Notes under the pieces: model-generated
The model's input: only the letters and a program-made list of their open reading frames with translations
What the model was told of the DNA's origin: nothing
Databases searched by the model: none
Assembly: GCF_044324875.1 (NCBI RefSeq)
Contig: NZ_CP172185.1
DNA: 64,000 bases
DNA from: Escherichia coli
Lineage (GTDB): Bacteria; Pseudomonadota; Gammaproteobacteria; Enterobacterales; Enterobacteriaceae
Strand: one strand, 5' to 3'
Position numbers and translations under genes: made by a program
Shown here: positions 1 to 21,621 of the stretch, piece by piece
How positions within the stretch are numbered: the stretch's first letter is position 1
Layout of the letters: every line of letters starts with the position of its first letter

Positions 1-137
1 CGGGAGATTACCGGGAAATGCCAACGCGCGATCAGCGTGACCGAAATGAGATGTATCTTTCGGTTATTCCGGCGGCAGATGTCATTGCTGCTGTCGATAA
101 ATTACTGCCCTCCTCCACGACAGGTACGTCGTTATGA
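1..137 (+). CDS. waaQ: 3' end of LPS core heptosyltransferase III gene (partial, start lies outside window)
   Basis: Open frame from window edge to TGA at 135-137, overlapping the waaG ATG by 4 bp; position upstream of waaG matches the waaQ operon order. Confidence 0.55.
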   Translation, partial: GDYREMPTRDQRDRNEMYLSVIPAADVIAAVDKLLPSSTTGTSL

Positions 138-1258
138 TCGTTGCTTTTTGTTTATATAAATATTTTCCCTTTGGCGGTTTGCAGCGCGATTTCATGCGTA
201 TTGCTCAGACAGTCGCCGCTCGAGGTCATCATGTTCGGGTTTATACCCAGTCGTGGGAAGGCGAATGCCCTGATGTATTTGAACTGATCAAAGTGCCGGT
301 TAAATCGCATACCAATCACGGGCGCAATGCGGAGTATTTTGCCTGGGTGCAAAAACATTTACGCGAACATCCCGTCGATAGAGTCGTTGGATTCAACAAA
401 ATGCCGGGGCTGGACGTTTATTATGCCGCTGATGTTTGTTATGCCGAGAAAGTAGCGCAGGAGAAAGGCTTTTTCTATCGCCTGACGTCACGTTATCGCC
501 ATTATGCCGCCTTTGAGCGAGCAACCTTTGAACAGGGTAAGCCGACACAGCTGCTGATGCTGACAGATAAGCAAATCGCCGATTTCCAGAAACATTATCA
601 GACTGAAGCGGAGCGTTTTCATATTCTGCCACCGGGGATTTACCCTGATCGTAAATATAGCCAGCAGCCAGCCAATAGCCGTGAAATCTTCCGTAAGAAG
701 AATGGAATAACCGAACAGCAATATTTATTGTTGCAGGTCGGTTCAGACTTCACGCGTAAAGGTGTCGATCGCTCCATTGAAGCACTTGCTTCGTTACCGG
801 ATTCGCTGCGCCACAACACATTGCTATATGTTGTTGGGCAGGATAAACCGCGAAAATTTGAGGCGCTGGCAGAAAAACGCGGCGTGCGCAGTAATGTTCA
901 CTTCTTCTCGGGGCGCAATGATGTCTCGGAATTAATGGCGGCGGCGGATTTATTACTGCATCCTGCCTACCAGGAAGCGGCGGGAATTGTGCTGCTGGAA
1001 GCGATTACTGCAGGATTACCGGTACTAACAACTGCCGTTTGTGGCTATGCGCATTATATTGTCGACGCCAATTGCGGCGAGGCTATTGCTGAGCCATTCC
1101 GCCAGGAAACATTGAATGAGATTTTACGCAAAGCGTTAACGCAATTTTCATTGCGCCAGGCCTGGGCGGAAAATGCGCGACATTATGCTGATACACAAGA
1201 TTTGTACAGTCTGCCAGAGAAAGCGGCGGATATCATAACGGGTGGTCTGGATGGTTGA
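134..1258 (+). CDS. waaG: LPS core glucosyltransferase I (GT4)
   Basis: 374-aa ORF; N-terminus and length match WaaG as I recall it. Confidence 0.9.
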
Positions 1259-2048
1259 ACTTAAAGAGCCGTTTGCCACGTTATGGCGCGGAAAAGATCC
1301 TTTTGAGGAAGTTAAAACTTTGCAGGGTGAGGTATTTCGTGAACTGGAAACTCGCCGTACTCTGCGCTTTGAAATGGCGGGCAAAAGCTATTTTCTCAAA
1401 TGGCATCGCGGCACGACCCTGAAAGAGATAATCAAAAATTTACTCTCATTGCGGATGCCAGTATTAGGCGCAGACCGCGAATGGAATGCGATTCATCGAC
1501 TGCGGGATGTCGGCGTTGATACTATGTATGGGGTGGCATTCGGCGAAAAAGGCATTAATCCGCTGACCAGAACCTCGTTTATTATAACCGAAGATCTGAC
1601 ACCAACCATCAGTCTGGAAGATTACTGTGCTGACTGGGCGACTAACCCTCCAGATGTTCGCGTAAAGCGTATGCTTATTAAGCGTGTCGCGATGATGGTG
1701 CGCGATATGCATGCTGCGGGCATTAACCACCGTGACTGTTATATCTGTCATTTCCTGCTGCACTTGCCTTTTTCCGGTAAGGAAGAGGAGTTAAAAATTT
1801 CGGTAATTGACCTGCACCGGGCGCAGCTTCGCACGCGCGTTCCACGTCGTTGGCGCGATAAAGATCTTATTGGGCTTTATTTTTCTTCGATGAATATTGG
1901 CCTGACTCAGCGGGATATCTGGCGGTTTATGAAAGTGTATTTTGCCGCCCCGCTTAAAGACATTCTCAAGCAGGAACAAGGACTGCTGTCGCAAGCAGAA
2001 GCAAAAGCCACAAAAATCAGGGAAAGAACGATTAGAAAATCGTTGTAA
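1251..2048 (+). CDS. waaP: LPS core heptose kinase
   Basis: ORF track starts at 1242; trimmed to MVELKEP giving 265 aa as in WaaP; overlaps waaG stop. Confidence 0.88.
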
Positions 2049-2090
2049 CCCGTAACTTATTTTTGCCAAAATTTTGGATACAGAATAAAT

Positions 2091-3098
2091 ATGTCTCAAC
2101 TCAATGATAGTGACATCATCCTTTTTGAGTATAACTTTCATTATCAAAATATAAGATCTAAAAATACTCTTGATATCGCATTTGGTATTGACAGAAATTT
2201 TCTTTTTGGATGTGGTGTAGCCATCGCATCTATTCTATTAAACAATAGCGAAATCTCTTGTGAATTTCATGTTTTCACAGATTATATCAGTGATAAAGAC
2301 AAGTTATATTTTTCCGATTTAGCAAAACAATATAATTCAAGAATTAATATTTATGTTATCAATTGTGATAAGCTGAAGTCATTACCAAGCACGAAAAACT
2401 GGACTTACGCTACATATTTTCGATTTATAATTGCAGATTATTTCTATAATAAACATGAAAAAATACTATACCTTGATGCAGATATTGCTTGCAAGGGTAG
2501 TATTAAAGAACTCTTAGATTATCAATTCTCTACTAATGAAATTGCCGCAGTTGTAGCTGAAAGAGATGTTGAATGGTGGCAGAATCGAGCCTCGGTATTA
2601 ACTACACCACAATTAGCTTCTGGATATTTCAATGCTGGTTTTTTGCTGATAAATATTGATGAGTGGAATCTAAATAACATTTCGTCAAAAGCTATTGAAA
2701 TGTTGCGTGACCCAGATTGGGTAAGTAAAATCACCCACCTTGATCAAGATGTACTGAATGTATTATTGAATGGTAAAGTGAAGTTTATTTCGGGGAAATA
2801 TAATACCCGATATAGTATTAACTATGAATTAAAAGACAAAGTTGATAATCCAGTCAATGATGACACCGTGTTTATACACTATGTGGGACCTACAAAACCC
2901 TGGCATGAGTGGGCTGATTATCCGGTGTCACGTAGTTTTTTGATCGCCAAAGCAGCTTCTCCGTGGTGTAAAGAAGATTTACTTAAACCTGTGAATAGCA
3001 ATCAGTATCGGTATTGTGCAAAACATAAATTTAAACAAAAGCATTATATGGCAGGCATTTTTAATTATTTAAAGTATTATAAAGAAAAATGCTTCTAA
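2091..3098 (+). CDS. waaI: LPS outer-core alpha-1,3 glycosyltransferase, GT8 family (WaaI/WaaO type)
   Basis: 335-aa GT8-like protein directly after waaP; AT-rich; name assigned from R3-type gene order. Confidence 0.7.
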   Translation: MSQLNDSDIILFEYNFHYQNIRSKNTLDIAFGIDRNFLFGCGVAIASILLNNSEISCEFHVFTDYISDKDKLYFSDLAKQYNSRINIYVINCDKLKSLPSTKNWTYATYFRFIIADYFYNKHEKILYLDADIACKGSIKELLDYQFSTNEIAAVVAERDVEWWQNRASVLTTPQLASGYFNAGFLLINIDEWNLNNISSKAIEMLRDPDWVSKITHLDQDVLNVLLNGKVKFISGKYNTRYSINYELKDKVDNPVNDDTVFIHYVGPTKPWHEWADYPVSRSFLIAKAASPWCKEDLLKPVNSNQYRYCAKHKFKQKHYMAGIFNYLKYYKEKCF

Positions 3099-3123
3099 AG
3101 ATTTAAGGTTAAAATAATTCATT

Positions 3124-3831
3124 ATGATATATAATAAAACGATAAATGGGTTGAAAGTTTTCATAAAAGATAATGATCCCTTTTATGAGCAAGTGCTGAA
3201 TGACTTTTTAACTTGCAGGGTTAAAACATTAAAAGTTTTTCGTTCTATTGATGATACTAAAGTCATTCTTATTGACACTGCTCGTGGACCTCTTGTACTT
3301 AAAGTTTATGCGCCAAAGCATAAAATGATCGAACGTTTCTTAAAATCTTGCGTAAAAAAAGATTATTATGAAAATTTAATTTATCAAACCGATCGGGTAC
3401 GTGGTGAAGGCATTCAATCAATTAATGACTATTTTTTGCTTGCTGAACGTAAAACATTAAATTTCGCGCATTATTATATTATGCTCATTGAGTATATTGA
3501 AGGTGTCGGGTTAAATGAGTATTTGGAAATTTCTGAAGATCTGAAGGAACAATTATCAGAATCGATAAAAGAGTTGCATCAGCATGGAATGGTGTCTGGC
3601 GATCCTCATAAAGGAAATTTTATAGTATCCGAAAAAGGTTTAAGACTAATTGACCTTTCAGGTAAAAAAACAACCGCAGTTTTAAAAGCAAAAGATCGCA
3701 TTGATCTTGAACGGCACTATAATATAAAAAATGAATTGAAAGACTTTGGCTATACATATCTCATATTCAAAAAGAAAATTAAAAAAGCAATCAGGGATGT
3801 AAAAGTAAAACTAGGATTGAAGAGCAAATAA
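3124..3831 (+). CDS. waaY: LPS core heptose II kinase
   Basis: 235-aa kinase-like protein, size and position as WaaY. Confidence 0.7.
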   Translation: MIYNKTINGLKVFIKDNDPFYEQVLNDFLTCRVKTLKVFRSIDDTKVILIDTARGPLVLKVYAPKHKMIERFLKSCVKKDYYENLIYQTDRVRGEGIQSINDYFLLAERKTLNFAHYYIMLIEYIEGVGLNEYLEISEDLKEQLSESIKELHQHGMVSGDPHKGNFIVSEKGLRLIDLSGKKTTAVLKAKDRIDLERHYNIKNELKDFGYTYLIFKKKIKKAIRDVKVKLGLKSK

Positions 3832-3855
3832 TGATTATGATGAAGGGTAATTAAA

Positions 3856-4869
3856 TTGGATTTTAAACATCTTACTCAATTTAAAGATATAATTGAACTG
3901 GACAAGCGCCCCGTTAAACTTGATGAACGGGAAACGTTTAATGTCTCATGGGGTATTGATGAGAACTACCAGGTTGGGGCTGCGATTTCAATTGCTTCAA
4001 TTCTTGAAAATAATAAACAAAACAAATTTACCTTTCACATAATCGCTGATTACTTAGACAAAGAGTATATTGAATTATTATCACAATTAGCAACGAAGTA
4101 TCAAACAGTAATTAAATTATATCATATTGATTCTGAGCCATTGAAGGCGCTACCTCAATCAAATATCTGGCCAGTATCTATTTATTATCGTTTGCTTTCA
4201 TTTGATTATTTTTCTGCGCGATTGGATTCATTATTATATCTTGATGCTGATATCGTCTGTAAGGGTTCATTGAACGAGTTAATAGCATTAGAGTTTAAAG
4301 ATGAATATGGGGCTGTGGTAATTGATGTAGATGCTATGCAAAGTAAAAGCGCTGAGCGTTTATGTAATGAGGATTTTAACGGTAGCTATTTTAACTCTGG
4401 TGTAATGTATATTAATTTACGGGAATGGTTACAACAAAGACTAACGGAGAAATTTTTTGATCTATTATCAGATGAGTCAATTATCAAAAAATTAAAGTAT
4501 CCGGATCAAGATATTTTAAACTTAATGTTTTTACATCATGCTAAAATATTACCGAGAAAATATAATTGTATTTATACTATAAAGTCAGAATTTGAAGAAA
4601 AAAATAGTGAATATTACACCCAGTTTATTAATGATGAAACTGTCTTCATACATTATACTGGTGTAACTAAGCCATGGCATGATTGGGCGGACTACGCATC
4701 TGCAGATTATTTTCGTAATATTTATAATATATCTCCATGGAGAAATATACCTTATAAAAAAGCTGTTAAAAAACATGAGTACAAAGAAAAATATAAACAC
4801 TTGCTTTACCAGAAAAAATTTCTCAATGGTGTTTTTACAGCAATTAAATATAATGTTATGAAAGGTTAA
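3856..4869 (+). CDS. waaJ: LPS outer-core alpha-1,2 glycosyltransferase, GT8 family (WaaJ type)
   Basis: 337-aa GT8-like protein; frame opens after TGA at 3841-3843 and first start codon is TTG at 3856. Confidence 0.65.
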   Translation: MDFKHLTQFKDIIELDKRPVKLDERETFNVSWGIDENYQVGAAISIASILENNKQNKFTFHIIADYLDKEYIELLSQLATKYQTVIKLYHIDSEPLKALPQSNIWPVSIYYRLLSFDYFSARLDSLLYLDADIVCKGSLNELIALEFKDEYGAVVIDVDAMQSKSAERLCNEDFNGSYFNSGVMYINLREWLQQRLTEKFFDLLSDESIIKKLKYPDQDILNLMFLHHAKILPRKYNCIYTIKSEFEEKNSEYYTQFINDETVFIHYTGVTKPWHDWADYASADYFRNIYNISPWRNIPYKKAVKKHEYKEKYKHLLYQKKFLNGVFTAIKYNVMKG

Positions 4870-4877
4870 TATTCGAG

Positions 4878-6020
4878 ATGGTTGATAAAATAATATTTAC
4901 AGTTACTCCTATTTTTTCAATTCCTCCCCGCGGAGCGGCCGCTGTTGAAACGTGGATGTATCAGGTTGCTCAGCGTACCAATTTCCCAAATCGCATTGTT
5001 TGTATCAAGAATCCAGGATACTCAAATTACACCTTTGTTAATGATAATTGTAGTATTCATAGGGTTGGATTCAGTCGCATATATAAGCGGTTATTTCAAA
5101 AATGGACAAGACTTGATCCTCTACCATATTCACAGAGAATATTGAATATTGCCCATGATTTTCCTATAACGAAAGAAAGTGTTATTGTAGTTCATAATAG
5201 CATGAAGCTATACACTCAAATTCGTAAGCGAGCTCCTCAGGCAAGAGTGGTTATTCATATGCATAATGCATTTGAACCAAAATTGCTTGAGCAAAATGTT
5301 AAAATGATAGTGCCTAGTTTATACTTGAAAAAGTATTACCAATCTTATTTAGCAAATGCAGATATTGAGATTGTACCAAATGGAATTGATTTAGAAACCT
5401 ATCAATCTACTTTTCAGCCGATCACTAGAAGCGAACTTAATATCTCCCCTGAAGAGAAAATTATTTTTTATGCTGGGCGTATCGTCCCTGACAAAGGCAT
5501 ATTACTGTTGATGCAATCATTCGAAAAATTGGCCGTTGCTCACAAAAATTTAAAATTAGTTGTGATTGGTGATTATACAGAAATGAGTAAAAGTGACAAA
5601 GGTGCATATCAACACAATGTCAGGGAAATTGCAAAACGTTTGAAGGATCGTTGCATTATGTTAGGAAGCATACCGCCTGAAAAGATGCATTGTTATTACC
5701 CACTGGCAGATTTAGTTGTCATTCCTTCCCAGTTCCAGGAACCATTTTGCATGGTGGCAATTGAAGCTATGGGGGCTGGTAAGCCTGTTTTAGTGAGTAC
5801 GCGTGGGGGGATGACGGAATTTGTCAAAGAAAATACTACGGGATTCCATTTAAAAGAACCTATGACTGCAGACTCCATAAGCAGCGATATTTTAAAAACG
5901 TTAGCGAATCCTGAATTAACAGCAGTTGCAAAGCAAGGTCAGGATTTTGTGTTTGATCACTACAGTTGGGATGGCGTAACTCAAAGATTCGAAGAGGTCA
6001 TTCATAATTGGTTTGAATAA
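4878..6020 (+). CDS. waaD: LPS outer-core glycosyltransferase, GT4-like (WaaD of R3-type clusters)
   Basis: 380-aa glycosyltransferase as last gene of the waaQ operon, convergent with waaL. Confidence 0.6.
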   Translation: MVDKIIFTVTPIFSIPPRGAAAVETWMYQVAQRTNFPNRIVCIKNPGYSNYTFVNDNCSIHRVGFSRIYKRLFQKWTRLDPLPYSQRILNIAHDFPITKESVIVVHNSMKLYTQIRKRAPQARVVIHMHNAFEPKLLEQNVKMIVPSLYLKKYYQSYLANADIEIVPNGIDLETYQSTFQPITRSELNISPEEKIIFYAGRIVPDKGILLLMQSFEKLAVAHKNLKLVVIGDYTEMSKSDKGAYQHNVREIAKRLKDRCIMLGSIPPEKMHCYYPLADLVVIPSQFQEPFCMVAIEAMGAGKPVLVSTRGGMTEFVKENTTGFHLKEPMTADSISSDILKTLANPELTAVAKQGQDFVFDHYSWDGVTQRFEEVIHNWFE

Positions 6021-6021
6021 A

Positions 6022-6056
6022 TAAAAAGGCCGCATTATGCAGCCTTTTTTATTTTT
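6022..6056. terminator. Bidirectional intrinsic terminator between convergent waaD and waaL
   Basis: Stem aaaaggc(6024-6030)/gcctttt(6042-6048) with T-runs on both strands. Confidence 0.6.
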
Positions 6057-7265
6057 TTACTTGTTTTTCATTGCTAATAATAAGCCGGCGTAAACGCCTA
6101 ATAAATTTGGTTCAATTTGTTCTACGTTTCCACGGATAACAAAATAACCTATAAAAGATAGTAAGATTATATAATATGCATTATATGGTGAGCGGTTTTT
6201 ATTCTGGACGCCATTTTTTATACACTCTTTCAATATTGCGCAGTATAGCATCATAAGACTTATCAGCCCTAATAAACCAGTGCCAAACCAGATGAATAGC
6301 GCAAAATTATGTGGCCCTATCGATTGTCTAAAGGTCCATTCTGGATAATCAACGACACGTTTATTATAGACATCTTTATATGCAACGTTACCGTAACCGT
6401 AACCAATAACAGGATTTTCTAATATTAGATCGAGTGCGCTGCCTTGAGTACCATTTGCATAGCGATAAGAACTATTAGTTTGTTGAAGTTTATACGTTAG
6501 ATTTGCGGTCATCTCCTTATGTGTGAAAATAACCGATAATGCAATGATGGAAACCATTACTCCTACTAATAGTAACTTCCATTGTTTAAACATCAGAATC
6601 CATATTAATCCAATGACTAACACGGAAAGCCAGGCTCCTCTGGATAAAGTTCCTAATATCAGAAAAATAAAAATAACGCTTAGAACCGCAAAAGAAATGC
6701 GGTATTTTGCTGATTTGATAAGCCAGAGATTTAACAATGCAGGAAATAAAAAGACCATCGAGTCAGAAATGCTACGGTGTCTATAATCTGCAAATGGCAT
6801 TACCCCTTGTTGATAGTCCTTATAATAGGCAATCAATTCAGAAAAACAACGTAAGCCCAACGCACTTATAAATGAGAAGAAAACGATTTTTTCGACATCT
6901 TCTCTTTTCTCGTCTCTCAATATGACCGGTATTGCTATTGTGCATAGTAAAGTATTTTCAATGATAGCTTTGAAAATTTCCTTCATGCTAGCACCTGCAT
7001 CTGGGGATTGAAGAAGTGATAGCAATGCAGCAATAGTTAATATGGCAACACTACCAAAAAGACATGTTTTAAATAGTGAAAGATAGTGTTTTGGCCGTTT
7101 GCAGAGATAGACGATTGTCGTTATTGTCATAAGAATAACAATAAGATGTTTATACCTTGTAATCCCACCCAAAAAATAGGTGGTAATGAATAAGAATACG
7201 AGAGCTCTGTTCCAGTACGCTATCCAGTTTTTTTTCTCGAGAGAGAAAAATAATGTTGAGGTCAT
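6057..7265 (-). CDS. waaL: O-antigen ligase
   Basis: 402-aa polytopic membrane protein at the waaL position after waaC; AT-rich like the central waa genes. Confidence 0.8.
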   Translation of the reverse strand: MTSTLFFSLEKKNWIAYWNRALVFLFITTYFLGGITRYKHLIVILMTITTIVYLCKRPKHYLSLFKTCLFGSVAILTIAALLSLLQSPDAGASMKEIFKAIIENTLLCTIAIPVILRDEKREDVEKIVFFSFISALGLRCFSELIAYYKDYQQGVMPFADYRHRSISDSMVFLFPALLNLWLIKSAKYRISFAVLSVIFIFLILGTLSRGAWLSVLVIGLIWILMFKQWKLLLVGVMVSIIALSVIFTHKEMTANLTYKLQQTNSSYRYANGTQGSALDLILENPVIGYGYGNVAYKDVYNKRVVDYPEWTFRQSIGPHNFALFIWFGTGLLGLISLMMLYCAILKECIKNGVQNKNRSPYNAYYIILLSFIGYFVIRGNVEQIEPNLLGVYAGLLLAMKNK

Positions 7266-8254
7266 CTTATCTCCGATGTCAACTTATTGGTTATTATTTC
7301 AAGATTTAAATTTTGAAAAACGGTTTGAGCTGGCAAATCTGCAAGAGACATACTTGTAGAACGACACTCTACTTGATTCTTCCCATACCCGCCAATTAAT
7401 CCCGGATCGGTAGGTCCATAAACCGTGATATTGGGTCTATCCAGTGCCGCCGTTAAATGGCTTAACCCCGTATCCACCGACACTACAAATTTAGCCCCGG
7501 CCAGCACGCGGGCAACGCCTTCCAGACTCATCTTCGGCAATACTTCAACATAAGCAAATCCTTCCGCCAGTCGTTTCGCCCGTTCTTCCTCATGCGGCGC
7601 GCCCCACGGAAGTTTAATCCGTATTCCTGAATCTGCCAGTAAACCAATCAAATCTCGCCAGTGTTCTTCCGGCCAGTGTTTATCATCACGGGTCGTCGCA
7701 TGAAGAAATACGGCATATTCGCCAGCATCTGTAGGCAGGTTCGTCAGGAAATGCTGTGCAATAGCATAATCGCCCTGGGTTTGCGGTTTGCTATAGCCCA
7801 GACTTTTGGCAAACAGTTCGCGGGTGCGTTCTACGGCGTGCTGCTGTTTCGCAATATGATGCTTACGATTGTAAAACAAGCTTGCCAGTGGTTCGCGAGC
7901 GGTTTGCCAGTCCATTCCATGCTTTACGCCATGTGCCAGACGCGTCACCAGCGCCGCGCTTTTTACCAGCCCCTGAGCGTCGATAACTGCGTCATAGTTC
8001 TCTGCTTGTAGCGCTTCACGAAACGCTTTCCGTTCAGCTTTTATGGGGGCCGAGAACCAGGCTTTACGCCAGCGACGTATTGCCACAGGAATAACTCGCT
8101 CAACAGCGGCGTGCCAGGAAGGAATTTGTGCGAACCCTTCTTCCACCACCCAGTCAAACTTAATCCCTGGGATTGCCTGCTGGGCATCAGTGAGTGCGGG
8201 CAACGTATGGAGAACATCGCCCATCGACGATGTTTTAACGATCAAAACCCGCAT
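7262..8254 (-). CDS. waaC: LPS heptosyltransferase I
   Basis: N-terminus MRVLIVKTSSMGDVLHTLPALTDA matches WaaC; C-terminal tail differs from K-12 and overlaps waaL start by 4 bp. Confidence 0.9.
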   Translation of the reverse strand: MRVLIVKTSSMGDVLHTLPALTDAQQAIPGIKFDWVVEEGFAQIPSWHAAVERVIPVAIRRWRKAWFSAPIKAERKAFREALQAENYDAVIDAQGLVKSAALVTRLAHGVKHGMDWQTAREPLASLFYNRKHHIAKQQHAVERTRELFAKSLGYSKPQTQGDYAIAQHFLTNLPTDAGEYAVFLHATTRDDKHWPEEHWRDLIGLLADSGIRIKLPWGAPHEEERAKRLAEGFAYVEVLPKMSLEGVARVLAGAKFVVSVDTGLSHLTAALDRPNITVYGPTDPGLIGGYGKNQVECRSTSMSLADLPAQTVFQNLNLEIITNKLTSEIR

Positions 8255-8257
8255 CCG

Positions 8258-9304
8258 TCAGGCTTCCTCTTGTAACAATAGCGCGTTGAGTTCTTCCAGT
8301 GCGCGCTGGGGAGTAATGTCGATCAAGCTCTGGTGATAACCCTCCGCAGCGTCACCTTTACGCACTTTGTGATAGCCGGTAATCAGGCGGATCACGCGTG
8401 CTTTATGGGATAGCGGCGGTGTGAAGTCCGGGCTACTCGGACCATACAGGGCAACCAGCGGACGATTGAGCGCCGCCGCAACGTGCATCAGGCCAGAATC
8501 GTTAGTGACAATGGCTTTACAGGCTGCAATCAGGATAACCGCTTGATCAAGCTGTGTTTCCCCCGCCAGGTTCCGGCACCATGCCTGCTGCTCGGTATTC
8601 AAAGCGGCAAGAATCTCATTGCCCGCTTCATGATCTTTCGCCGAGCCAAACAGAACCACCTGATAACCTTCATCAATCAGCTGCTTTGCCAGTTCCGCAT
8701 AGTGGTAGTGTGGCCAGCGTTTTGCCGGACCAAACTCCGCACCCGGGCAAAAGCCAATCATCGGACGTTCTGATGAAAGCGAAAATTGATTACAGGTATA
8801 TGATTTTTCACCTTCGCTCACCTGCAACTGCGGCCATAACAATGGCTGCGGCAGATCTTGTGCTGTACGCATAATGCCTTTGTCATAGGCCAGCGCGACA
8901 TAGCGTTCCACCATTAGCGGCCAGGCTTCTTTATCGAGCACGCGTACATCGTTAAGTAAACCGTAGCGCATCTCGCCGCGCCAGCCGGTGCGATGAGGAA
9001 TACCCGCGAAGAAAGGCACTAATGCGGACTTGAAGGAGTTGGGTAAGACGTAGGCGCGGTCGTAGCGCTTTTCACGCAGACTATGACCCAGTTTGCGGCG
9101 TTCGCCGATTTCCAGCGCTCCGTGACCGAGAGGCATAGGGATAGCTTCGTTAACTTCCGGCATCCGCGATAATAATGGACGGCACCATGCCGGTGCCATC
9201 ACGTCGATTATCGCCTGGGGATAGCGCGCCTGGAGCGTGCGATAGAGACTTTGCGACATCATCATGTCGCCAACCCAAGACGGGCCGATCACCAGTATTT
9301 TCAT
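8258..9304 (-). CDS. waaF: LPS heptosyltransferase II
   Basis: 348-aa ORF MKILVIGPSWVGDMMMSQSLYRTL, WaaF-like. Confidence 0.9.
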   Translation of the reverse strand: MKILVIGPSWVGDMMMSQSLYRTLQARYPQAIIDVMAPAWCRPLLSRMPEVNEAIPMPLGHGALEIGERRKLGHSLREKRYDRAYVLPNSFKSALVPFFAGIPHRTGWRGEMRYGLLNDVRVLDKEAWPLMVERYVALAYDKGIMRTAQDLPQPLLWPQLQVSEGEKSYTCNQFSLSSERPMIGFCPGAEFGPAKRWPHYHYAELAKQLIDEGYQVVLFGSAKDHEAGNEILAALNTEQQAWCRNLAGETQLDQAVILIAACKAIVTNDSGLMHVAAALNRPLVALYGPSSPDFTPPLSHKARVIRLITGYHKVRKGDAAEGYHQSLIDITPQRALEELNALLLQEEA

Positions 9305-9313
9305 GCAGAGCTC

Positions 9314-10246
9314 TTATGCGTCGCGATTCAGCCAGGCCATGTATTCCGTTACACCTTCAGCAACGGTTTTGAACGGTTTGTCGTAACCCGCCGCGCGCAG
9401 ATTTGTCAGATCAGCCTGAGTGAACGCCTGATAGCGGCCTTTCAGTTTATCCGGGAACGGAATGTATTCGATCTGCCCTTTCTTGTGATAAGCAAGCGTA
9501 GCATCTGCTACTGCCTGGAAGGATTCTGCACGACCGGTGCCGAGGTTGAAGATACCGGAAACGCCATTTTCCAGGAACCACAGGTTTACATCTGCTACGT
9601 CGCCCACATAGACGAAGTCACGTTTGAAGTTCTCGCTACCTTCAAACAGCTTCGGTGATTCACCGTTGTTAAGCTGAGTGTTGAGATGGAAAGCGACGCT
9701 CGCCATGCTACCTTTATGGCCTTCACGCGGTCCATAAACGTTGAAATAGCGGAAGCCAACAATCTGCGAGTTCGCTTCAGGCAGGATTTGGCGAACATAT
9801 TCATCAAACAGGAATTTTGAGTAACCGTAGACATTCAACGGTTTTTCATATTCGCGGGATTCAATAAAGTCGGAGGTGCGACCGCCGTAAGTGGCTGCAG
9901 AAGAAGCGTACAGGAACGGGATTTCGCGCTCAAGGCAGTAGTGCAGCAGCTCCTTGGAGTATTGATAGTTGTTATCCATCATATATTTGCCGTCCCACTC
10001 GGTGGTGGAAGAGCACGCGCCTTCGTGGAAAATCGCTTCGACATCGCCGAACTCTTCGCCAGCCATAATCTGGATCAGGAAGTCTTCCTTATCCATATAG
10101 TCCGCGATATCCAGATCCACCAGGTTCACAAACTTGGTGCCGTCTTTCAGGTTGTCCACCACCAGAATATCGGTGATGCCTTTGTCATTCAGGGCTTTAA
10201 CGATGTTGCTGCCGATAAAGCCCGCGCCGCCGGTAACGATGATCAT
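9314..10246 (-). CDS. hldD: ADP-L-glycero-D-manno-heptose 6-epimerase
   Basis: 310-aa NAD-binding epimerase [23 protein letters not shown]. Confidence 0.92.
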
Positions 10247-10549
10247 AACTGTAACCTTCGAATTATGGAGTCAGAGACAATCTCAGACACGAATGTCTGT
10301 AATCATACCATCACATCCGAATCCCTTCAGCCCTTTACATAGAGATGCAAGGATGCTAATTGCAACAAACTAGTTTGGGTTTTAGCCAGTCCTTCATGGC
10401 GGATGTTGGATTTGCACGTGAATAGTGCTTTAGTATCAATATTCCGATGTATGATAAATAACTGAAACATTTGAATGGATAATATACAGTATACATTCTG
10501 TTAATATTTATGATATAATTCTTTTTTTATATTAATGGTCTTATTAGTA

Positions 10550-11407
10550 ATGAAATCATCCACCACAATTATCACTGCATATTTTGACATTGGTAGAGGG
10601 GATTGGACTGCTAATAAAGGGTTCCGTGAAAAACTAGCTCGTTCAGTTGATGTTTATTTTAGTTACTTTGAGCGTCTGGCCGCACTTGAAAATGAGATGA
10701 TTATTTTCACTTCTCCCGATTTGAAATCAAGGGTTGAAGCGATTCGCAACGGAAAACCAACAACGGTTATCGTTATCGATATAAAAAAGAAATTTAGATA
10801 TATCAGAAGTCGTATCGAAAAAATTCAAAAAGATGAGTCGTTTACAAATAGACTTGAGCCTCGACAATTAAAAAACCCAGAGTACTGGTCACCAGAGTAT
10901 GTTTTGGTATGTAACCTTAAGGCCTATTTTGTAAATAAAGCTATCAACATGGGCTTAGTGAAAACGCCTCTTGTTGCGTGGATAGATTTTGGCTATTGCC
11001 GTAAGCCAAATGTAACTCGAGGATTGAAAATTTGGGATTTCCCATTTGATGAAAATAAGATGCATCTTTTCACTATAAAAAAAGGGCTTACTGTCACATC
11101 TCAACAACAGGCTTTTGATTTCATGATTGGCAATCATGTATATATTATTGGTGGCGCAATTGTTGGTTCACAGCATAAATGGAAAGAATTCTATAAATTA
11201 GTTCTGGAAAGTCAAAAAATAACCCTAAACAATAACATTGTGGACGATGACCAGGGCATCTTTGTCATGTGCTATTACAAACGTTCCGATCTCTTCAACC
11301 TAAACTATCTGGGGAGAGGAAAATGGTTCGATTTGTTTCGCTGCTTCAGGAGTAACACTTTAGGGGCAAAAATGCAGGCGCTGAGAATTTTCCTTTCAAG
11401 AAAATAG
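10550..11407 (+). CDS. htrL: HtrL/YibB family protein
   Basis: ORF trimmed to MKSSTTIITAYF (285 aa); divergent from hldD as in K-12. Confidence 0.8.
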   Translation: MKSSTTIITAYFDIGRGDWTANKGFREKLARSVDVYFSYFERLAALENEMIIFTSPDLKSRVEAIRNGKPTTVIVIDIKKKFRYIRSRIEKIQKDESFTNRLEPRQLKNPEYWSPEYVLVCNLKAYFVNKAINMGLVKTPLVAWIDFGYCRKPNVTRGLKIWDFPFDENKMHLFTIKKGLTVTSQQQAFDFMIGNHVYIIGGAIVGSQHKWKEFYKLVLESQKITLNNNIVDDDQGIFVMCYYKRSDLFNLNYLGRGKWFDLFRCFRSNTLGAKMQALRIFLSRK

Positions 11408-11452
11408 GTTTCCCTCCATTAGTGGGTAGCGTTTTGATGCCAACTGAGATAG

Positions 11453-11486
11453 GAAAAAATGATGCTTTGGCATCATTTTTTCTTTT
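11453..11486. terminator. Intrinsic terminator downstream of htrL
   Basis: Perfect stem atgatgc/gcatcat (11459-11476) flanked by A-run and T-run. Confidence 0.65.
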
Positions 11487-11682
11487 TATATCAATGCAGT
11501 AAAATCACTCATCATTATGCCCAGCCAAAACTGTACAGTTTTTCTACTATCTATAGGTGTTGAGAGACATCAAGATTCACGTTATTTATCCTGAATTTTG
11601 CAGAAGTGTTAACGCGTCATCTCGTCGCAACCTATAAGTTTGGGTAATATGTGCTGGAATTTGCCCTGTCTGGAGAATCGCA

Positions 11683-12879
11683 ATGCGTGGAGAATTTTAT
11701 CAGCAGTTAACCAACGATCTGGAAACCGCACGGGCGGAAGGGTTGTTTAAAGAAGAGCGCATTATTACGTCTGCGCAGCAAGCAGATATCACTGTGGCTG
11801 ATGGAAGCCACGTCATTAACTTTTGTGCCAATAACTATCTCGGACTGGCGAATCATCCGGATCTGATTGCGGCGGCAAAGGCGGGAATGGATTCTCACGG
11901 TTTCGGCATGGCTTCGGTGCGTTTTATTTGCGGCACTCAGGACAGCCATAAAGAGCTTGAACAAAAACTGGCGGCCTTCCTGGGGATGGAAGATGCGATT
12001 CTCTACTCTTCCTGCTTTGATGCTAACGGTGGCCTGTTTGAAACGCTGTTGGGCGCGGAAGACGCCATTATCTCCGACGCACTGAACCACGCGTCTATTA
12101 TTGATGGTGTGCGTCTGTGCAAAGCTAAACGCTATCGTTATGCCAACAACGATATGCAGGAGCTGGAAGCACGTCTGAAAGAAGCGCGTGAAGCCGGTGC
12201 GCGTCATGTGCTGATTGCCACCGATGGTGTGTTCTCGATGGACGGCGTGATTGCCAATCTGAAAGGCGTTTGCGATCTGGCAGATAAATATGATGCCCTG
12301 GTGATGGTAGATGACTCCCACGCGGTAGGTTTTGTCGGTGAAAACGGTCGTGGTTCCCATGAATACTGCGATGTGATGGGCCGGGTCGATATTATCACCG
12401 GCACGCTCGGTAAAGCGCTGGGCGGGGCTTCTGGTGGTTATACCGCGGCGCGCAAAGAAGTGGTTGAGTGGCTGCGCCAGCGTTCTCGTCCGTATCTGTT
12501 CTCCAACTCGCTGGCACCGGCCATTGTTGCCGCTTCCATCAAAGTGCTGGAGATGGTTGAAGCGGGTAGCGAGCTGCGTGACCGTCTCTGGGCGAACACG
12601 CGTCAGTTCCGTGAGCAAATGTCGGCGGCGGGCTTTACCCTAGCGGGAGCCGATCACGCCATTATTCCGGTCATGCTTGGTGATGCGGTAGTAGCGCAGA
12701 AATTTGCCCGTGAGCTGCAAAAAGAGGGCATTTACGTCACCGGTTTCTTCTATCCGGTCGTTCCGAAAGGTCAGGCGCGTATTCGTACCCAGATGTCTGC
12801 GGCGCATACCCCTGAGCAAATTACGCGTGCAGTAGAAGCATTCACGCGTATTGGTAAACAACTGGGCGTTATCGCCTGA
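11683..12879 (+). CDS. kbl: 2-amino-3-ketobutyrate CoA ligase (glycine C-acetyltransferase)
   Basis: 398-aa PLP-dependent enzyme, Kbl-like sequence. Confidence 0.93.
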
Positions 12880-12888
12880 GGATGTGAG

Positions 12889-13914
12889 ATGAAAGCGTTA
12901 TCCAAACTGAAAGCGGAAGAGGGCATCTGGATGACCGACGTTCCTGTACCGGAACTCGGGCATAACGATCTGCTGATTAAAATCCGTAAAACAGCCATCT
13001 GCGGGACTGACGTTCACATCTATAACTGGGATGAGTGGTCGCAAAAAACCATCCCGGTGCCGATGGTCGTGGGCCATGAATATGTCGGTGAAGTGGTAGG
13101 TATTGGTCAGGAAGTGAAAGGCTTCAAGATTGGCGATCGCGTTTCTGGCGAAGGCCATATCACCTGCGGTCACTGTCGCAACTGTCGTGGCGGTCGTACC
13201 CATCTGTGCCGCAACACGATCGGCGTCGGCGTTAACCGTCCGGGCTGCTTCGCCGAGTATCTGGTGATTCCGGCGTTCAACGCTTTCAAAATCCCTGACA
13301 ATATCTCCGATGATCTGGCTTCCATTTTTGATCCCTTCGGTAACGCCGTGCATACCGCGCTGTCGTTTGATCTGGTGGGCGAGGATGTGCTGGTCTCTGG
13401 TGCAGGCCCGATTGGTATTATGGCGGCGGCGGTGGCGAAACACGTTGGTGCACGTAACGTGGTGATTACTGATGTTAACGAATACCGCCTTGAGTTGGCG
13501 CGTAAAATGGGTGTCACCCGTGCGGTTAACGTCGCTAAAGAGAACCTCAATGATGTGATGGCAGAACTGGGCATGACCGAAGGCTTTGATGTCGGTCTGG
13601 AAATGTCCGGTGCGCCGCCAGCGTTTCGTACCATGCTCGACACCATGAACCACGGCGGTCGTATTGCGATGCTGGGTATTCCACCATCTGATATGTCTAT
13701 CGACTGGACCAAAGTGATCTTTAAAGGCTTGTTCATTAAAGGTATTTACGGTCGTGAGATGTTTGAAACCTGGTACAAGATGGCGGCGCTGATTCAGTCT
13801 GGCCTCGATCTCTCGCCGATCATTACCCATCGTTTCTCTATCGATGATTTCCAGAAGGGCTTTGACGCCATGCGTTCGGGCCAGTCCGGGAAAGTTATCC
13901 TGAGCTGGGATTAA
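12889..13914 (+). CDS. tdh: L-threonine 3-dehydrogenase
   Basis: 341-aa zinc-ADH family protein, Tdh-like sequence. Confidence 0.93.
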
Positions 13915-13923
13915 CACAAACAA

Positions 13924-13946
13924 GGGCTGGTATTCCAGCCCTTTTT
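13924..13946 (+). terminator. Intrinsic terminator of the kbl-tdh operon
   Basis: Stem gggctgg/ccagccc followed by TTTTT. Confidence 0.75.
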
Positions 13947-14152
13947 CCTGAGGATAATCCGTTAAATATGTAAAATCCTGTCAGTGTAATAAAGAGTTCG
14001 TAATTGCGCTGATCTCTTATATAGCTGTTCTCATTATCTCTCTACCCTGAAGTGACTCTCTCACCTGTAAAAATAATATCTCACAGGCTTAATAGTTTCT
14101 TAATACCAAGCCTGTAAAACGTCAGGATAACTTCAGAGGTTGTCGGTAATTT

Positions 14153-15187
14153 ATGATGAACAGCACCAATAAACTTAGTGTTATTATCCCGTTATATAAT
14201 GCGGGTGATGATTTCCGCACTTGTATGGAATCTTTAATTACGCAAACCTGGACTGCTCTGGAAATCATTATTATTAACGATGGTTCAACGGATAATTCTG
14301 TTGAAATAGCAAAGCATTACGCAGAAAACTATCCGCACGTTCGTTTGTTGCATCAGGCGAATGCTGGCGCATCGGTGGCGCGTAATCGTGGGATCGAGGT
14401 GGCGACGGGCAAATATGTCGCTTTTGTCGATGCTGATGATGAGGTGTATCCCACCATGTACGAAACGCTGATGACCATGGCGTTAGAGGACGACCTCGAC
14501 GTGGCGCAGTGCAACGCTGACTGGTGTTTTCGTGAAACGGGAGAAACCTGGCAATCCATCCCCACCGATCGCCTTCGCTCAACCGGCGTATTAACCGGCC
14601 CGGATTGGTTGCGGATGGGGCTTTCTTCCCGCCGTTGGACTCACGTTGTCTGGATGGGGGTTTATCGCCGCGATGTTATTGTTAAAAATAACATTAAATT
14701 TATTGCCGGATTACATCATCAGGATATTGTCTGGACAACAGAATTTATGTTTAATGCGCTGCGTGCGCGATATACCGAGCAATCGTTATATAAATATTAT
14801 CTGCATAATACGTCAGTGAGTCGGTTGAATAGACAAGGGAATAAAAACCTTAATTATCAACGTCACTATATTAAGATTACCCGCCTGCTAGAGAAATTAA
14901 ATCGAAATTATGCCGACAAAATTACGATTTATCCGGAATTTCATCAGCAAATAACTTACGAAGCATTGCGTGTTTGCCATGCGGTGCGCAAAGAGCCGGA
15001 TATTATTACCCGCCAACGGATGATTGCCGAGATATTTACTTCCGGTATGTATAAGCGCCTGATTACCAATGTGCGCAGCGTGAAGGTGGGTTATCAGGCG
15101 TTACTGTGGTCTTTCCGCTTATGGCAATGGCGCGACAAAACGCGGTCGCACCATCGCATTACGCGTAGCGCCTTTAATTTGCGCTAG
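14153..15187 (+). CDS. waaH: LPS core glucuronic acid transferase (GT2), Pho-regulon member in K-12
   Basis: 344-aa GT2 protein MMNSTNKLSVIIPLYNAGDD matching WaaH/YibD. Confidence 0.88.
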   Translation: MMNSTNKLSVIIPLYNAGDDFRTCMESLITQTWTALEIIIINDGSTDNSVEIAKHYAENYPHVRLLHQANAGASVARNRGIEVATGKYVAFVDADDEVYPTMYETLMTMALEDDLDVAQCNADWCFRETGETWQSIPTDRLRSTGVLTGPDWLRMGLSSRRWTHVVWMGVYRRDVIVKNNIKFIAGLHHQDIVWTTEFMFNALRARYTEQSLYKYYLHNTSVSRLNRQGNKNLNYQRHYIKITRLLEKLNRNYADKITIYPEFHQQITYEALRVCHAVRKEPDIITRQRMIAEIFTSGMYKRLITNVRSVKVGYQALLWSFRLWQWRDKTRSHHRITRSAFNLR

Positions 15188-16133
15188 CGTTAAGTTTTGC
15201 CGCTTCAGGCTGTTTGCCCCAGCCTTGCCACTGATGCTGGAAGTAAACGATCAGCGTGCTCTGGCTGATGCTTTCGCTTAATACTTCAAAGAAGCGATTA
15301 GCATAAACAGGTTCTATCGGTTTCTTCGGTTTGCACAGCTTCACGCCACGGAACGGATTACGCGGTGTGTCAGGCACAGTGTTTTTCGGCGGTGTAGACG
15401 TATCAACCTGCGGTTCATTCAGCAAGCTGCTGGCTTTCACCAGCGTAATGTCTGGCGGCAGGTTATAAACCATCTGTTGTAGCACGCGTACCGTTGAAGG
15501 GTGAGGATGCCCAATGGCAATGGTTGAACCGTTGCGACGCGCCAGATCAATTGCGCGATTGAACTGCACACGGATGTCCGCTTCATTTTGCGAATCGTCG
15601 AGGAACACTTTCCGTTTGATCACCTTCACGCCAGTGCCTTGCGCTGCGCGCATCGCCTGGGTATTACCGATGGTTACGCTGTCGAGGAAGTAAAGATTGT
15701 AACGCTCCAGCGCCTGCATCACTTTCTGCATACCAAACAGGTTAGAGGTCATCTTGCTGCCCATGTGGTTGTTGATCCCCACGGCATAGGGCACGTTATT
15801 GACCGCACTACGAATAATGCGCTCAATTTCGTCGCTGCTCATCTCCGGGCGTAGCGTATTTTTCTCCAGCGGCTGTTTACTCAGTGGTGCCATCGGTAGA
15901 TGAATCAACACTTCGTGACCGCTGTTATGCGCTTTGGTCGCCATCTCTCTGGCGTGCGGTGAATCGGGTAATACAGCGACGGAGATAGCGGAAGGCATCG
16001 CCAGCACCTGGTTTTCGTTGTGCGGGCGATACCCAAAATCATCAATGACGATGGCAAGTTTGCCAGCAATTACGGGGGAGGAGAGCGCCAACAGAGCGGC
16101 AAATGCAAGAACGTTACGACGAAATGGAAACAA
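15174..16133 (-). CDS. yibQ: Divergent polysaccharide deacetylase family protein
   Basis: 319-aa ORF with signal peptide, YibQ-like. Confidence 0.85.
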   Translation of the reverse strand: MFPFRRNVLAFAALLALSSPVIAGKLAIVIDDFGYRPHNENQVLAMPSAISVAVLPDSPHAREMATKAHNSGHEVLIHLPMAPLSKQPLEKNTLRPEMSSDEIERIIRSAVNNVPYAVGINNHMGSKMTSNLFGMQKVMQALERYNLYFLDSVTIGNTQAMRAAQGTGVKVIKRKVFLDDSQNEADIRVQFNRAIDLARRNGSTIAIGHPHPSTVRVLQQMVYNLPPDITLVKASSLLNEPQVDTSTPPKNTVPDTPRNPFRGVKLCKPKKPIEPVYANRFFEVLSESISQSTLIVYFQHQWQGWGKQPEAAKLNASAN

Positions 16134-16136
16134 AAC

Positions 16137-17396: not shown

Positions 17397-17429
17397 GGTA
17401 TTAATCGCCTTTCCCCTCATGGGGAGGGA

Positions 17430-18974: not shown

Positions 18975-19218
18975 TGCGACAACCTCATACTCAAGAGTCA
19001 AAATTTGCGTAATTTTACTACAGCTGAATCGATAAAATAGCCTCTGAAGATCAAAATATACGACCGCTCGCAGCAAGCCGATGCCAGATTTGCGCTTTTT
19101 TTTCGTCGCGCCCCGCAAAATTGCATTCCAGTTAACGCGCTGGCTGTATTTGCCGCACCGCGCAGGTATACTCCTTTCCTGGTTTTTTTAATCACTACGT
19201 CGGGAGTTGTTACCCCCC

Positions 19219-19650
19219 ATGCAAGAAATTATGCAATTTGTTGGCCGTCATCCCATACTGAGTATCGCCTGGATCGCGTTACTGGTGGCGGTTCTTGTGA
19301 CTACGTTTAAGAGCCTGACCTCGAAAGTGAAGGTGATTACTCGTGGTGAAGCTACGCGTCTGATCAACAAAGAAGATGCTGTGGTTGTGGATTTACGTCA
19401 GCGTGATGACTTCCGTAAAGGCCATATCGCAGGTTCTATCAACCTGTTGCCGAGCGAAATCAAAGCCAACAATGTTGGTGAGCTTGAGAAGCACAAAGAC
19501 AAACCGGTTATCGTGGTAGACGGTTCTGGCATGCAGTGCCAGGAGCCTGCAAACGCGCTGACGAAAGCTGGTTTTGCGCAAGTATTCGTGCTGAAAGAGG
19601 GCGTTGTTGGCTGGGCTGGCGAAAACTTACCTCTGGTGCGCGGCAAATAA
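19219..19650 (+). CDS. yibN: Rhodanese-domain inner-membrane protein
   Basis: 143 aa from MQEIMQ; single TM segment plus rhodanese fold. Confidence 0.85.
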
Positions 19651-19791
19651 TTTACCTGTCGTCTTTCATGATGCAGGCCGTTAGCTGCAATTAGGCCCCC
19701 AGCGACTTATTGTTATAAGCTTCTGGGGACACTCCATTTTGCAGCCGCCCTGCAACAAGAAATTTCAGGGTAAAAAAACAGGAGCTAAGTT

Positions 19792-20043
19792 ATGGCCAAT
19801 GTTGAAATCTATACCAAAGAAACCTGCCCGTATTGCCATCGTGCGAAAGCACTGCTGAGCAGCAAGGGCGTGAGTTTTCAGGAGTTGCCGATCGATGGCA
19901 ACGCCGCTAAGCGTGAAGAGATGATCAAACGCAGCGGTCGCACCACGGTTCCCCAGATTTTTATTGACGCACAGCACATTGGCGGCTGTGATGACTTGTA
20001 TGCATTGGATGCACGTGGTGGACTGGATCCCCTGCTGAAATAA
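19792..20043 (+). CDS. grxC: Glutaredoxin 3
   Basis: 83 aa with CPYC active-site motif. Confidence 0.93.
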
Positions 20044-21592: not shown

Positions 21593-21621
21593 ACCCAGGG
21601 AACCTTTGTTACCGCTATGAC

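Follow-up and report, generated by a model that had tools for sequence, protein, structure and literature searches.

In the R3 core oligosaccharide of Escherichia coli, Glc and GlcNAc substituents decorate a Glc-Gal-Glc backbone, and a strain's core type determines its fit with phages, antibodies and O antigens. A low-G+C variable segment has been described in the waa loci of all five E. coli core types, together with the transfer of this variable locus centre by homologous recombination, and the R3 cassette has been described as restricted to Escherichia and Shigella and of unknown origin (PMC8715443). The R3 outer-core cassette, its AT-richness and its swapping by recombination are therefore already known, and in these respects the locus described here is ordinary. 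We analysed a 64-kb stretch of E. coli DNA (the window) and compared its waa locus with typed E. coli loci and with loci of other enterobacterial genera.

Gene content and core type of the locus

The window begins inside the 3' end of waaQ. The conserved left flank continues with waaG (134-1258, plus strand), encoding a GT4 enzyme predicted to add Glc I of the outer core, and waaP (1251-2048, plus strand), the heptose I kinase gene and the final conserved gene ahead of the type-specific cassette. WaaG was 99% identical in amino acid sequence to the R1, R3 and R4 exemplars and 88-90% identical to MG1655 and the R2 exemplar, and WaaP scored 480 bits against NCBIfam PRK15123 (cut-off 170). The outer-core genes follow on the same strand. 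The product of waaI (2091-3098; named waaO by PGAP), a predicted GT8 alpha-1,3-galactosyltransferase, exceeded the gathering scores of Pfam PF01501 and PF08437 (Glyco_transf_8, 249 bits; Glyco_transf_8C, 74 bits) and the cut-off of NCBIfam PRK15171 (616 against 461 bits). The heptose II kinase gene waaY (3124-3831; PF06176 and PRK10359) lies between both GT8 genes, as in R3. The second GT8 gene is waaJ (3856-4869), whose product was above the same Pfam gathering scores (214 and 48 bits) and, at 296 bits, below the 461-bit cut-off of the NCBIfam 3-alpha-galactosyltransferase equivalog, which fits a specificity other than that of WaaI. The product of the GT4 gene waaD (4878-6020; PF00534) is predicted to complete the R3 outer core.

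The O-antigen ligase gene waaL (6057-7265, minus strand) is convergent with waaD, and its product matched PF04932 (Wzy_C, 76.6 against a cut-off of 31.7) and the RfaL equivalog NCBIfam PRK15487 (689 against 277). The heptosyltransferase I gene waaC (7262-8254, minus strand) overlaps the start of waaL by 4 nt, and waaF (8258-9304) and hldD (9314-10246), both on the minus strand, belong to the conserved right flank. Between waaD and waaL lies a bidirectional intrinsic terminator, a hairpin flanked by A and T runs (6023-6049), in which the length of the T run differs among strains. A promoter scan of the cassette returned fewer sites than in shuffled sequence. Beyond hldD, we observed an AT-rich presence/absence segment with yibB/htrL (10295-11578, plus strand; gene at 10550-11407), which is present in 042, EDL933, MG1655 and GN25 and missing from the LS4, 4/2-1, E24377A, VL7S7 and MLI023K2 loci.

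The first-pass annotation had read the order waaG-waaP-GT8-waaY-GT8-GT4 with convergent waaL as the R3 layout, and not as K-12 or R1, and had proposed a comparison with the R1-R4 and K-12 waa clusters. We performed this comparison. The results showed that region 2091-7265 aligns along its entire length with O157:H7 EDL933, an R3-type strain, at 98.2% DNA identity. The cassette proteins were 97-99% identical to those of EDL933 (WaaI 98.8%, WaaY 97.9%, WaaJ 97.9%, WaaD 99.2% and WaaL 97.3%), compared with 22-58% or no detectable similarity for the K-12, R1, R2 and R4 exemplars. Outside R3, identities were 52-57% for WaaY across the other core types, 57% for WaaD with R2 WaaK, and 51% for WaaL with R2, the maximum for any other type; protein comparison of WaaL with the K-12, R1 and R4 exemplars gave no match. 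WaaI, WaaJ, WaaD and WaaL thus matched R3 and no different core type.

The R3 typing primers located in waaJ and waaD, with a published amplicon of 1021 bp (PMC13293308), matched exactly in silico (R3-R at 3940-3962 in waaJ, R3-F at 4941-4960 in waaD) and delimited an amplicon of 1021 bp. The other seven typing primers had no match in the sequence with up to 3 mismatches allowed, and the same primer set correctly typed a panel of all five core types. The order waaQGP-waaI-waaY-waaJ-waaD, with convergent waaL upstream of waaC, is that of R3; the annotated order was the same in 042 and EDL933 and unlike that of the typed K-12, R1, R2 and R4 exemplars. An R3-specific waaL allele serves as a typing criterion (PMC8715443), and the waaL of this locus is the R3 allele. 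By open reading frames and annotation, waaS, waaB, waaZ, waaK/U, waaT, waaW and waaV/X were all missing from the locus. A cluster look-up of six proteins returned generic PGAP names without core-type labels. Region 2091-7265 had a match in 25.1% of the complete E. coli genomes (1363 of 5426), and the published R3 prevalence is 25.8% (PMC13293308); 177 genomes carry an allele with identity of ≥99%.

Genes, strands and the R3 reading therefore stood as first annotated. Only the K-12 order quoted for contrast, waaQGPSBIJYZK, used old rfa-era names; the current form is waaQGPSBOJYZU. These findings indicate that the locus is almost certainly the chromosomal waa (rfa) locus of E. coli with the R3 core type, a typing that is useful but routine.

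Cassette limits, base composition and relatives in other genera

Using blastn and junction alignments, we delimited an R3-specific AT-rich cassette at 2049-7373, which spans the outer-core genes and the ligase gene and reaches into the 3' end of waaC, with sharp junctions against other core types. On the left, about 98.5% identity to R1/R4 held through base 2048, and the cassette starts directly past the waaP stop codon; on the right, identity to K-12, R1 and R4 returned at base 7374. The final 37 codons of waaC (7262-7373) are part of the cassette and encode an R3-specific tail, indicating that the WaaC tail is particular to each core type. The earlier remark that the WaaC C-terminus is unlike that of K-12 proved correct (330 against 319 aa, diverging past ...GGYGKNQ). 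The earlier limits of 2091-7265 do correspond to the start codons of waaI and waaL, but the type-specific segment is slightly larger. These base-level boundaries, reaching into waaC, are an addition of the present analysis.

No tRNA genes were found in 1-16000, no boundary repeats were found at the cassette, and no integrase, transposase or mobility genes were annotated. Of the features of a classical genomic island, the segment has the atypical composition and lacks the tRNA site, the flanking direct repeats and the integrase or transposase; it is an allelic cassette, not a genomic island.

The GC content of 2049-7373 was 0.334, whereas the other 5.3-kb segments of the 64 kb had a mean of 0.517 (sd 0.022, minimum 0.463), placing the cassette about 8 sd lower. 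Gene by gene, waaI, waaY, waaJ, waaD and waaL ranged from 0.30 to 0.37 (GC3 0.25-0.33), against 0.47-0.54 for waaG, waaP, waaC, waaF and hldD. Composition is thus not uniform, and the outer-core genes and waaL are AT-rich relative to the flanks, as the first-pass annotation had claimed. When one locus per genus was compared, the variable segment was also AT-rich in Cedecea, Silvania, Kosakonia and Salmonella (0.37-0.41, against 0.52-0.57 in the flanks). Because collinear AT-rich cassettes occur in other genera, the low GC is probably a conserved trait and not a mark of recent import. AT-richness by itself does not diagnose transfer, and the equally AT-rich R3-like cassettes weaken the habit of reading low GC at this site as recent foreign origin.

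For R3 WaaI, WaaJ, WaaD and WaaL, identity was 70-75% to the Cedecea and Silvania proteins and 22-60% to those of other E. coli types and Salmonella, whereas WaaF, HldD and Kbl showed the relationships expected from the species tree. In Kosakonia cowanii, the order is exactly GT8-waaY-GT8-GT4 facing waaL. These results suggest that the R3 cassette probably belongs to an old inter-generic collinear outer-core-plus-ligase lineage with Cedecea, Silvania and, more distantly, Kosakonia, apart from the Salmonella/R2/K-12 lineage, rather than being confined to Escherichia and Shigella as previously described, and that its AT-richness was maintained and is no import scar. Such an ancient allele lineage, with AT-richness maintained, could reflect balancing selection under phage or immune pressure or a long-ago passage between genera. 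We lean slightly towards this account, with which the protein identities, the AT-richness of all compared cassettes and the Kosakonia gene order agree, although the sample is one locus per genus. The AT-richness might stem from weak codon selection or from RfaH/H-NS-type regulation; alternatively, GC-biased gene conversion might be reduced, since type-specific DNA seldom meets a homologous partner. This account complements the main explanation, an R3 allele exchanged through its conserved flanks, and does not compete with it.

A probable recombination tract around the cassette

We identified a block (1566-14106) that is nearly identical to 042 and GN25 within a background 1-2% diverged. The block measures about 12 kb, from about 1566/2035 to 14106, and both flanks differ by 1-2%. 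GN25 showed 2 differences from the block in 12.07 kb, where 141 were expected at the flank rate (Poisson about 1e-57), and the comparison with 042 gave a similar picture. In the GN25 comparison, the left edge of the block lay at most 15 bp from the cassette boundary, and the cassette phylogeny was in conflict with the flanking-gene phylogeny. A 12-kb block between diverged flanks is direct evidence, at the sequence level, of what appears to be a recent recombinational exchange, and the window thereby adds a clean example of a recent 12-kb tract that carries the cassette. The sharp junctions, the block and the phylogeny conflict support the earlier claim of horizontal exchange of the outer-core and ligase cassette, and are stronger evidence for it than base composition.

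The 12-kb identity with 042 and GN25 could alternatively be a shared clonal frame into which the flanks were imported, and cassette movement would then be unevidenced in the window. The visible DNA is 64 kb alone, E. coli genomes are mosaic, and the right part of the window is 95% to 99.9% identical to 042/GN25, all of which would suit a clonal frame. However, the identical portion covers just about 12 of the 64 kb, and its left edge in GN25 falls at the cassette boundary. Furthermore, complete genomes matched 13300-31000 at no more than 99.1% and 40000-64000 at no more than 97.3%; with no high-identity genome outside the block, none of the strains carrying it is a close clone of the source. 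We consider a shared clonal frame unlikely and retain recombination as the preferred reading of the block.

A recent import from a distant low-GC donor, in the manner of a classical horizontally acquired island, is quite improbable. The GC contrast (0.334 against 0.517) and the GC3 of 0.25-0.33 would fit such an import, and low G+C has been taken as a sign of horizontal transfer (PMC8715443). However, the homologous cassettes of Cedecea, Silvania, Kosakonia and Salmonella are equally AT-rich relative to their own flanks, indicating that low GC persisted across genus-level divergence. Moreover, divergence between the 042-type and O157-type R3 cassettes is 1.75%, which equals that of their flanks, and the searches described above found no tRNA gene, integrase genes or boundary repeats. 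The equal divergence of cassette and flanks also led us to reject a recent transfer of the cassette alone between the lineages of 042 and O157. Finally, the reading of the locus as another core type, or as an R2/K-12-style hybrid sharing only its gene order with R3, is so improbable that we set it aside: hybrid waa loci are known (PMC13293308) and the nearest E. coli relatives of WaaD and WaaL are in R2, but the full-length identity to EDL933, the protein identities, the lack of other-type primer matches even with 3 mismatches and the missing waaS, B, Z, K/U, T, W and V/X genes rule it out.

Predicted working of the locus and comparison with known systems

The specificity of each enzyme and the core structure that would result were deduced from the literature. 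The conserved flanks, waaQGP and hldD-waaF-waaC, would build the inner core and add the first glucose, and the cassette would supply the type-specific steps. WaaI, which is reported to add Gal (PMC3184986), would transfer alpha-1,3-Gal onto Glc I, WaaJ would add alpha-1,2-Glc to that Gal, and WaaD would add one further Glc. WaaY is predicted to phosphorylate heptose II, and the matching WaaL ligase would join the O antigen to the finished core. The two convergent operons probably stop at their shared terminator. The cassette behaves like one allele among five that can occupy the same fixed chromosomal position; it is devoid of mobility genes and presumably exchanged via homologous recombination in the conserved flanks.

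The annotation of WaaD may need correction. PGAP names it a GlcNAc transferase (WaaK subfamily), and it scored 766 against the 618 cut-off of NCBIfam PRK15484. WaaD has been described as a glucosyltransferase (PMC9927288, citing Kaniuk 2004), and GlcNAc is implied as its sugar in PMC3184986, at odds with that description. The PGAP name is probably a misnaming by automatic annotation, which we flag here. A complete R3 core also requires the GlcNAc transferase WabB, whose gene is plasmid-borne in O157:H7 and Shigella (Kaniuk 2004; PMC4267944). The WabB gene is not in the 64-kb window, and WabB was not among the matches listed in a tblastn search of WaaD against plasmids. Instead, WaaK-like genes with 60% identity turned up in the same search on plasmids of E. 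albertii, E. coli and E. fergusonii. Separately, plasmid pAA of strain 042 carries shf-capU-virK, and direct protein comparison showed CapU to be 58% identical to a pO157 GT4 protein whose gene adjoins a deacetylase gene; a megablast search with the 042 shf-capU-virK region had no pO157 plasmid among the matches listed.

Compared with the R3 loci of EDL933, 042 and Shigella flexneri, the locus has the same genes, order, strands, overlaps, 1021-bp amplicon and WaaC tail, with 2091-7265 identical in DNA sequence at 98.2% (EDL933) to about 100% (042). It differs in a one-base change of T-run length in the waaD/waaL terminator, and its genomic surroundings differ from those in 042. The R1 and R4 loci share nearly identical waaQGP (98.5% nt) and waaC-waaF-hldD, the same site and an AT-rich centre, but have the order waaO-T-Y-W-V/X, with waaL on the strand of the waaQ operon and a WaaL without detectable similarity to that of R3. 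In the R2 and Salmonella enterica loci (waaQGP-[S/wabA]-B-I/O-J-Y-Z-K), waaL is likewise convergent, in the hldD operon, and the variable segment is AT-rich. Among E. coli paralogue lineages, R2 WaaK, the GT4 adjoining waaL, and R2 WaaL are the closest to R3 (57% and 51%). The R2 and Salmonella loci nevertheless carry extra waaB, waaZ and waaS or wabA, have waaY 3' of both GT8 genes, and encode proteins only 42-60% identical to those of R3, in a separate clade.

Outside E. coli, collinearity with the R3 locus extends from tdh to waaA in Cedecea sp. FDAARGOS_727, Silvania and Kosakonia cowanii, whose loci are AT-rich and have GT8-GT8-GT4 facing waaL. Their proteins are 70-75% (Cedecea/Silvania) and 53-66% (Kosakonia) identical to those of R3, with blastn identity of about 70-74% through the cassette; Cedecea and Silvania are without waaY, and Kosakonia has htrL inside the operon. 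A further parallel is offered by the O-antigen (rfb) clusters between galF and gnd, in which low-GC cassettes lacking mobility genes likewise replace one another at a fixed position by recombination in the conserved flanks. Unlike the waa cassette, the rfb clusters have far more alleles and encode a repeat-unit pathway rather than the core.

Gene order and core type

We established the layout of the waa locus from its open reading frames, from NCBIfam and Pfam hits, and from how matching genomes are annotated in RefSeq. These sources were concordant and agreed with the gene order and coordinates of the first-pass annotation. The 3' end of waaQ (up to about 137), at the window start, is followed on the plus strand by waaG (134-1258), waaP (1251-2048), a GT8 gene (2091-3098; called waaI in work on R3 and "waaO" by PGAP, the RefSeq pipeline), waaY (3124-3831), a second GT8 gene, waaJ (3856-4869, TTG start), and the GT4 gene waaD (4878-6020). 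A 27-nt hairpin with A and T runs on its sides (6023-6049, both strands) forms a bidirectional intrinsic terminator, whose T-run (6044-6056) is of strain-dependent length (6 T in EDL933, 7 in the window, and 8 in 042). On the minus strand lie waaL (6057-7265), waaC (7262-8254, with a 4-nt overlap at the waaL start), waaF (8258-9304), and hldD (9314-10246).

A panel covering all five core types was taken from complete genomes (K-12: MG1655, LS4; R2: 4/2-1, MIN12; R1: E24377A, VL7S7; R4: MLI023K2; R3: 042, EDL933) and typed in silico with the published primers of PMC13293308. Every panel locus was matched by the primer pair of its own type, and the sole cross-match was K12-R, in waaY of both R2 loci. 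In MIN12, waaY is split by an IS2 insertion. The R3 pair alone matched the window, exactly, at 3940-3962 and 4941-4960, with the published amplicon of 1021 bp; no primer of another type matched it even with 3 mismatches allowed. The segment 2091-7265 was 98.2% identical to O157:H7 EDL933 and about 100% identical to strain 042. Full-length matches to it were present in 25.1% of complete E. coli genomes (1363/5426), in agreement with the R3 prevalence of 25.8% published together with a typing scheme (PMC13293308).

Amino acid identities to EDL933 were 98.8% for WaaI, 97.9% for WaaY, 97.9% for WaaJ, 99.2% for WaaD, and 97.3% for WaaL. Against the non-R3 core types, they were 54-58% for WaaI, 52-57% for WaaY, and 40-44% for WaaJ. 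WaaD was 57% identical to R2 WaaK, and in the remaining types it aligned only with WaaG, a paralogous GT4 (22%); WaaL was 51% identical to that of R2 and had no match in the K-12, R1, and R4 exemplars. The results showed that the R3 assignment survives comparison with the other core types, the refuting test put forward on first pass. In R1 and R4, waaL is codirectional with the waaQ operon, whereas it is convergent in the window, indicating that a convergent waaL itself discriminates core types.

Composition and boundaries of the cassette

The GC content of waaI, waaY, waaJ, waaD, and waaL was 0.30-0.37 each (GC3 0.25-0.33), compared with 0.47-0.54 in the flanking genes. Over the R3-specific segment 2049-7373, termed the cassette here, GC was 0.334, about 8 sd below the mean of the remaining 5.3-kb windows in the 64 kb (0.517, sd 0.022, minimum 0.463). 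The AT-richness claimed for the outer-core genes and waaL is therefore real and not due to chance.

Boundaries were located by blastn and column-by-column junction alignments with other core-type loci. Identity to R1 and R4 was about 98.5% as far as the waaP stop codon, which ends at base 2048, and no similarity to these loci was detected from 2049 on; against the K-12-type LS4, the break came earlier, at about 1944 within waaP. At the right edge, high identity to K-12, R1, and R4 returned at 7374, 37 codons ahead of the waaC stop, resulting in type-specific WaaC tails in all five types. WaaC is common to them as far as GGYGKNQ, and its length is 330 aa in R3, 319 in K-12 and R4, 318 in R2, and 323 in R1. 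The difference from the K-12 C-terminus noted on first pass thus holds for every core type. The R3 tail was closest to those of Cedecea and Silvania.

The waaQGP genes fall into two deep allele classes. Window 1-2048 was 97-98.5% identical in nucleotides to the R1, R4, R3, and K-12-like LS4 exemplars, but identity fell to 77% for MG1655 and the R2 exemplar, whose WaaG (88-90% aa identity) is about as distant as that of Salmonella.

Relatives in other genera and exchange between lineages

We searched for non-Escherichia relatives using R3 WaaL as the protein query. Identities of the nearest ones were 71% in Cedecea davisae and Cedecea sp., 67% in Cedecea neteri, 65% in Silvania and Enterobacter sp. 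Ap-916, and 54% in Salmonella. In the Cedecea sp. FDAARGOS_727 locus, collinearity extends between tdh and waaA, GT8-GT8-GT4 opposes waaL, and waaY alone is missing; its blastn alignments to the window cover 133-3079 (70.5%) and 3830-10345 (73.8%). Silvania and one metagenomic contig share this arrangement, and Kosakonia cowanii has the exact R3 order GT8-waaY-GT8-GT4. The cassette proteins split into a clade of R3, Cedecea, and Silvania and a clade of Salmonella and R2, with just 50-57% identity across the two, whereas WaaF, HldD, and Kbl agree with the species tree. The relatives' cassettes have a GC of 0.37-0.41 versus 0.52-0.57 in their own hldD-waaF-waaC flanks. Low GC is thus a conserved property of this gene class and does not on its own point to recent import. 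The exchange proposed on first pass is supported by other evidence, a 12-kb tract.

Window 1-2000 was 98.3-99.0% identical to both 042 and strain GN25. From 1566 (042) or 2035 (GN25) through 14106, the sequences were essentially identical; past 14106, identity to both was 98-99.3%, dropping to 95-98% beyond 46 kb. There were 2 differences from GN25 in 12.07 kb, against 141 expected from the flank rate (Poisson about 1e-57). The simplest reading is that a recent homologous-recombination tract moved the R3 cassette from one lineage to another along with waaC-waaF-hldD-yibB-kbl-tdh. That the block is instead clonal frame appears less likely, as judged from the 64 kb alone. Recent transfer of the cassette by itself between 042 and O157 left no sign, as divergence between 042 and EDL933 is 1.75% for the cassette and 1.3-3.3% for flanking genes. 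Identity of the window with strain 042 was rejected, since the flanks of the 1566-14106 block diverge from 042. No tRNA gene, boundary repeats, or mobility genes were found at the cassette, indicating an allelic cassette, not a mobile island.

The collection searched contains no close clone of the source: among the 5426 complete E. coli genomes, no match exceeded 99.1% to 13300-31000, and the best match to 40000-64000 was 97.3%, with none above. Identity of the latter region to 042 was 95-98%, especially over 46000-64000. This divergence reflects either a poorly represented source lineage or a divergent imported stretch.

Elsewhere in the window, the AT-rich yibB/htrL segment (10295-11578, GC about 0.36) is polymorphic for its presence: 042, EDL933, MG1655, GN25, and Cedecea also carry it, and LS4 and the R2, R1, and R4 exemplars lack it; in Kosakonia, yibB/htrL is located within the waaQ operon. 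An IS3-family insertion (about 22525-23956) between cysE and trmL is shared with GN25, where it is annotated as frameshifted, and not with 042. A large YadA-like trimeric autotransporter gene of the EhaG/UpaG type (about 5.2 kb, within about 30000-35500) showed repeat-driven divergence (91-96% to 042 and GN25). A low-GC stretch at 33501-35250 (0.38-0.41 in 1-kb windows) falls at its upstream end and in the adjoining DUF3251 gene region.

Enzyme roles and comparison with known systems

Roles were assigned from NCBIfam and Pfam families and the literature, with specificities inferred. WaaG would set Glc I, WaaI would attach Gal and WaaJ Glc II (PMC3184986), and WaaD would put a glucose substituent on the WaaJ-added residue (PMC9927288, citing Kaniuk 2004). 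WaaP and WaaY are predicted to phosphorylate heptoses I and II, and WaaL to ligate O antigen. WaaD scores above the cut-off of the WaaK subfamily model (766 vs 618 bits), which is why PGAP labels it "lipopolysaccharide N-acetylglucosaminyltransferase". PMC3184986 implies GlcNAc as its sugar; PMC9927288, contrary to the PGAP name, describes a glucosyltransferase. The PGAP name is probably wrong for R3 WaaD. The name waaD is also applied to hldD/rfaD, and PMC13293308 gives the R3 primer target the epimerase's name.

The GlcNAc branch is ascribed to the plasmid gene wabB in the title of Kaniuk 2004 and in PMC4267944. Plasmid pAA of 042 bears shf-capU-virK, and its CapU shares 58% identity with the pO157 GT4 adjoining a deacetylase gene, a likeness no more than suggestive, which may hint at a GlcNAc-branch gene in 042. 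GT4 genes of the WaaK/WaaD kind, with about 60% identity to WaaD, occur on plasmids of about 50-125 kb in E. albertii, E. coli, and E. fergusonii, often adjoining a DapH/GlmU-type acetyltransferase gene.

A waa locus with a low-G+C variable centre and conserved flanks, lacking mobile-element remnants and probably exchanged by homologous recombination, was described in PMC8715443. With typing and prevalence covered by PMC13293308, the locus is a known R3 system, which the first-pass annotation recognised correctly. The recombination tract is an incremental addition to it. So are the cross-genus relatives: PMC8715443 restricts homologues of the central region to Escherichia and Shigella, a claim that fails at 70-75% identity, the level found in Cedecea and Silvania.
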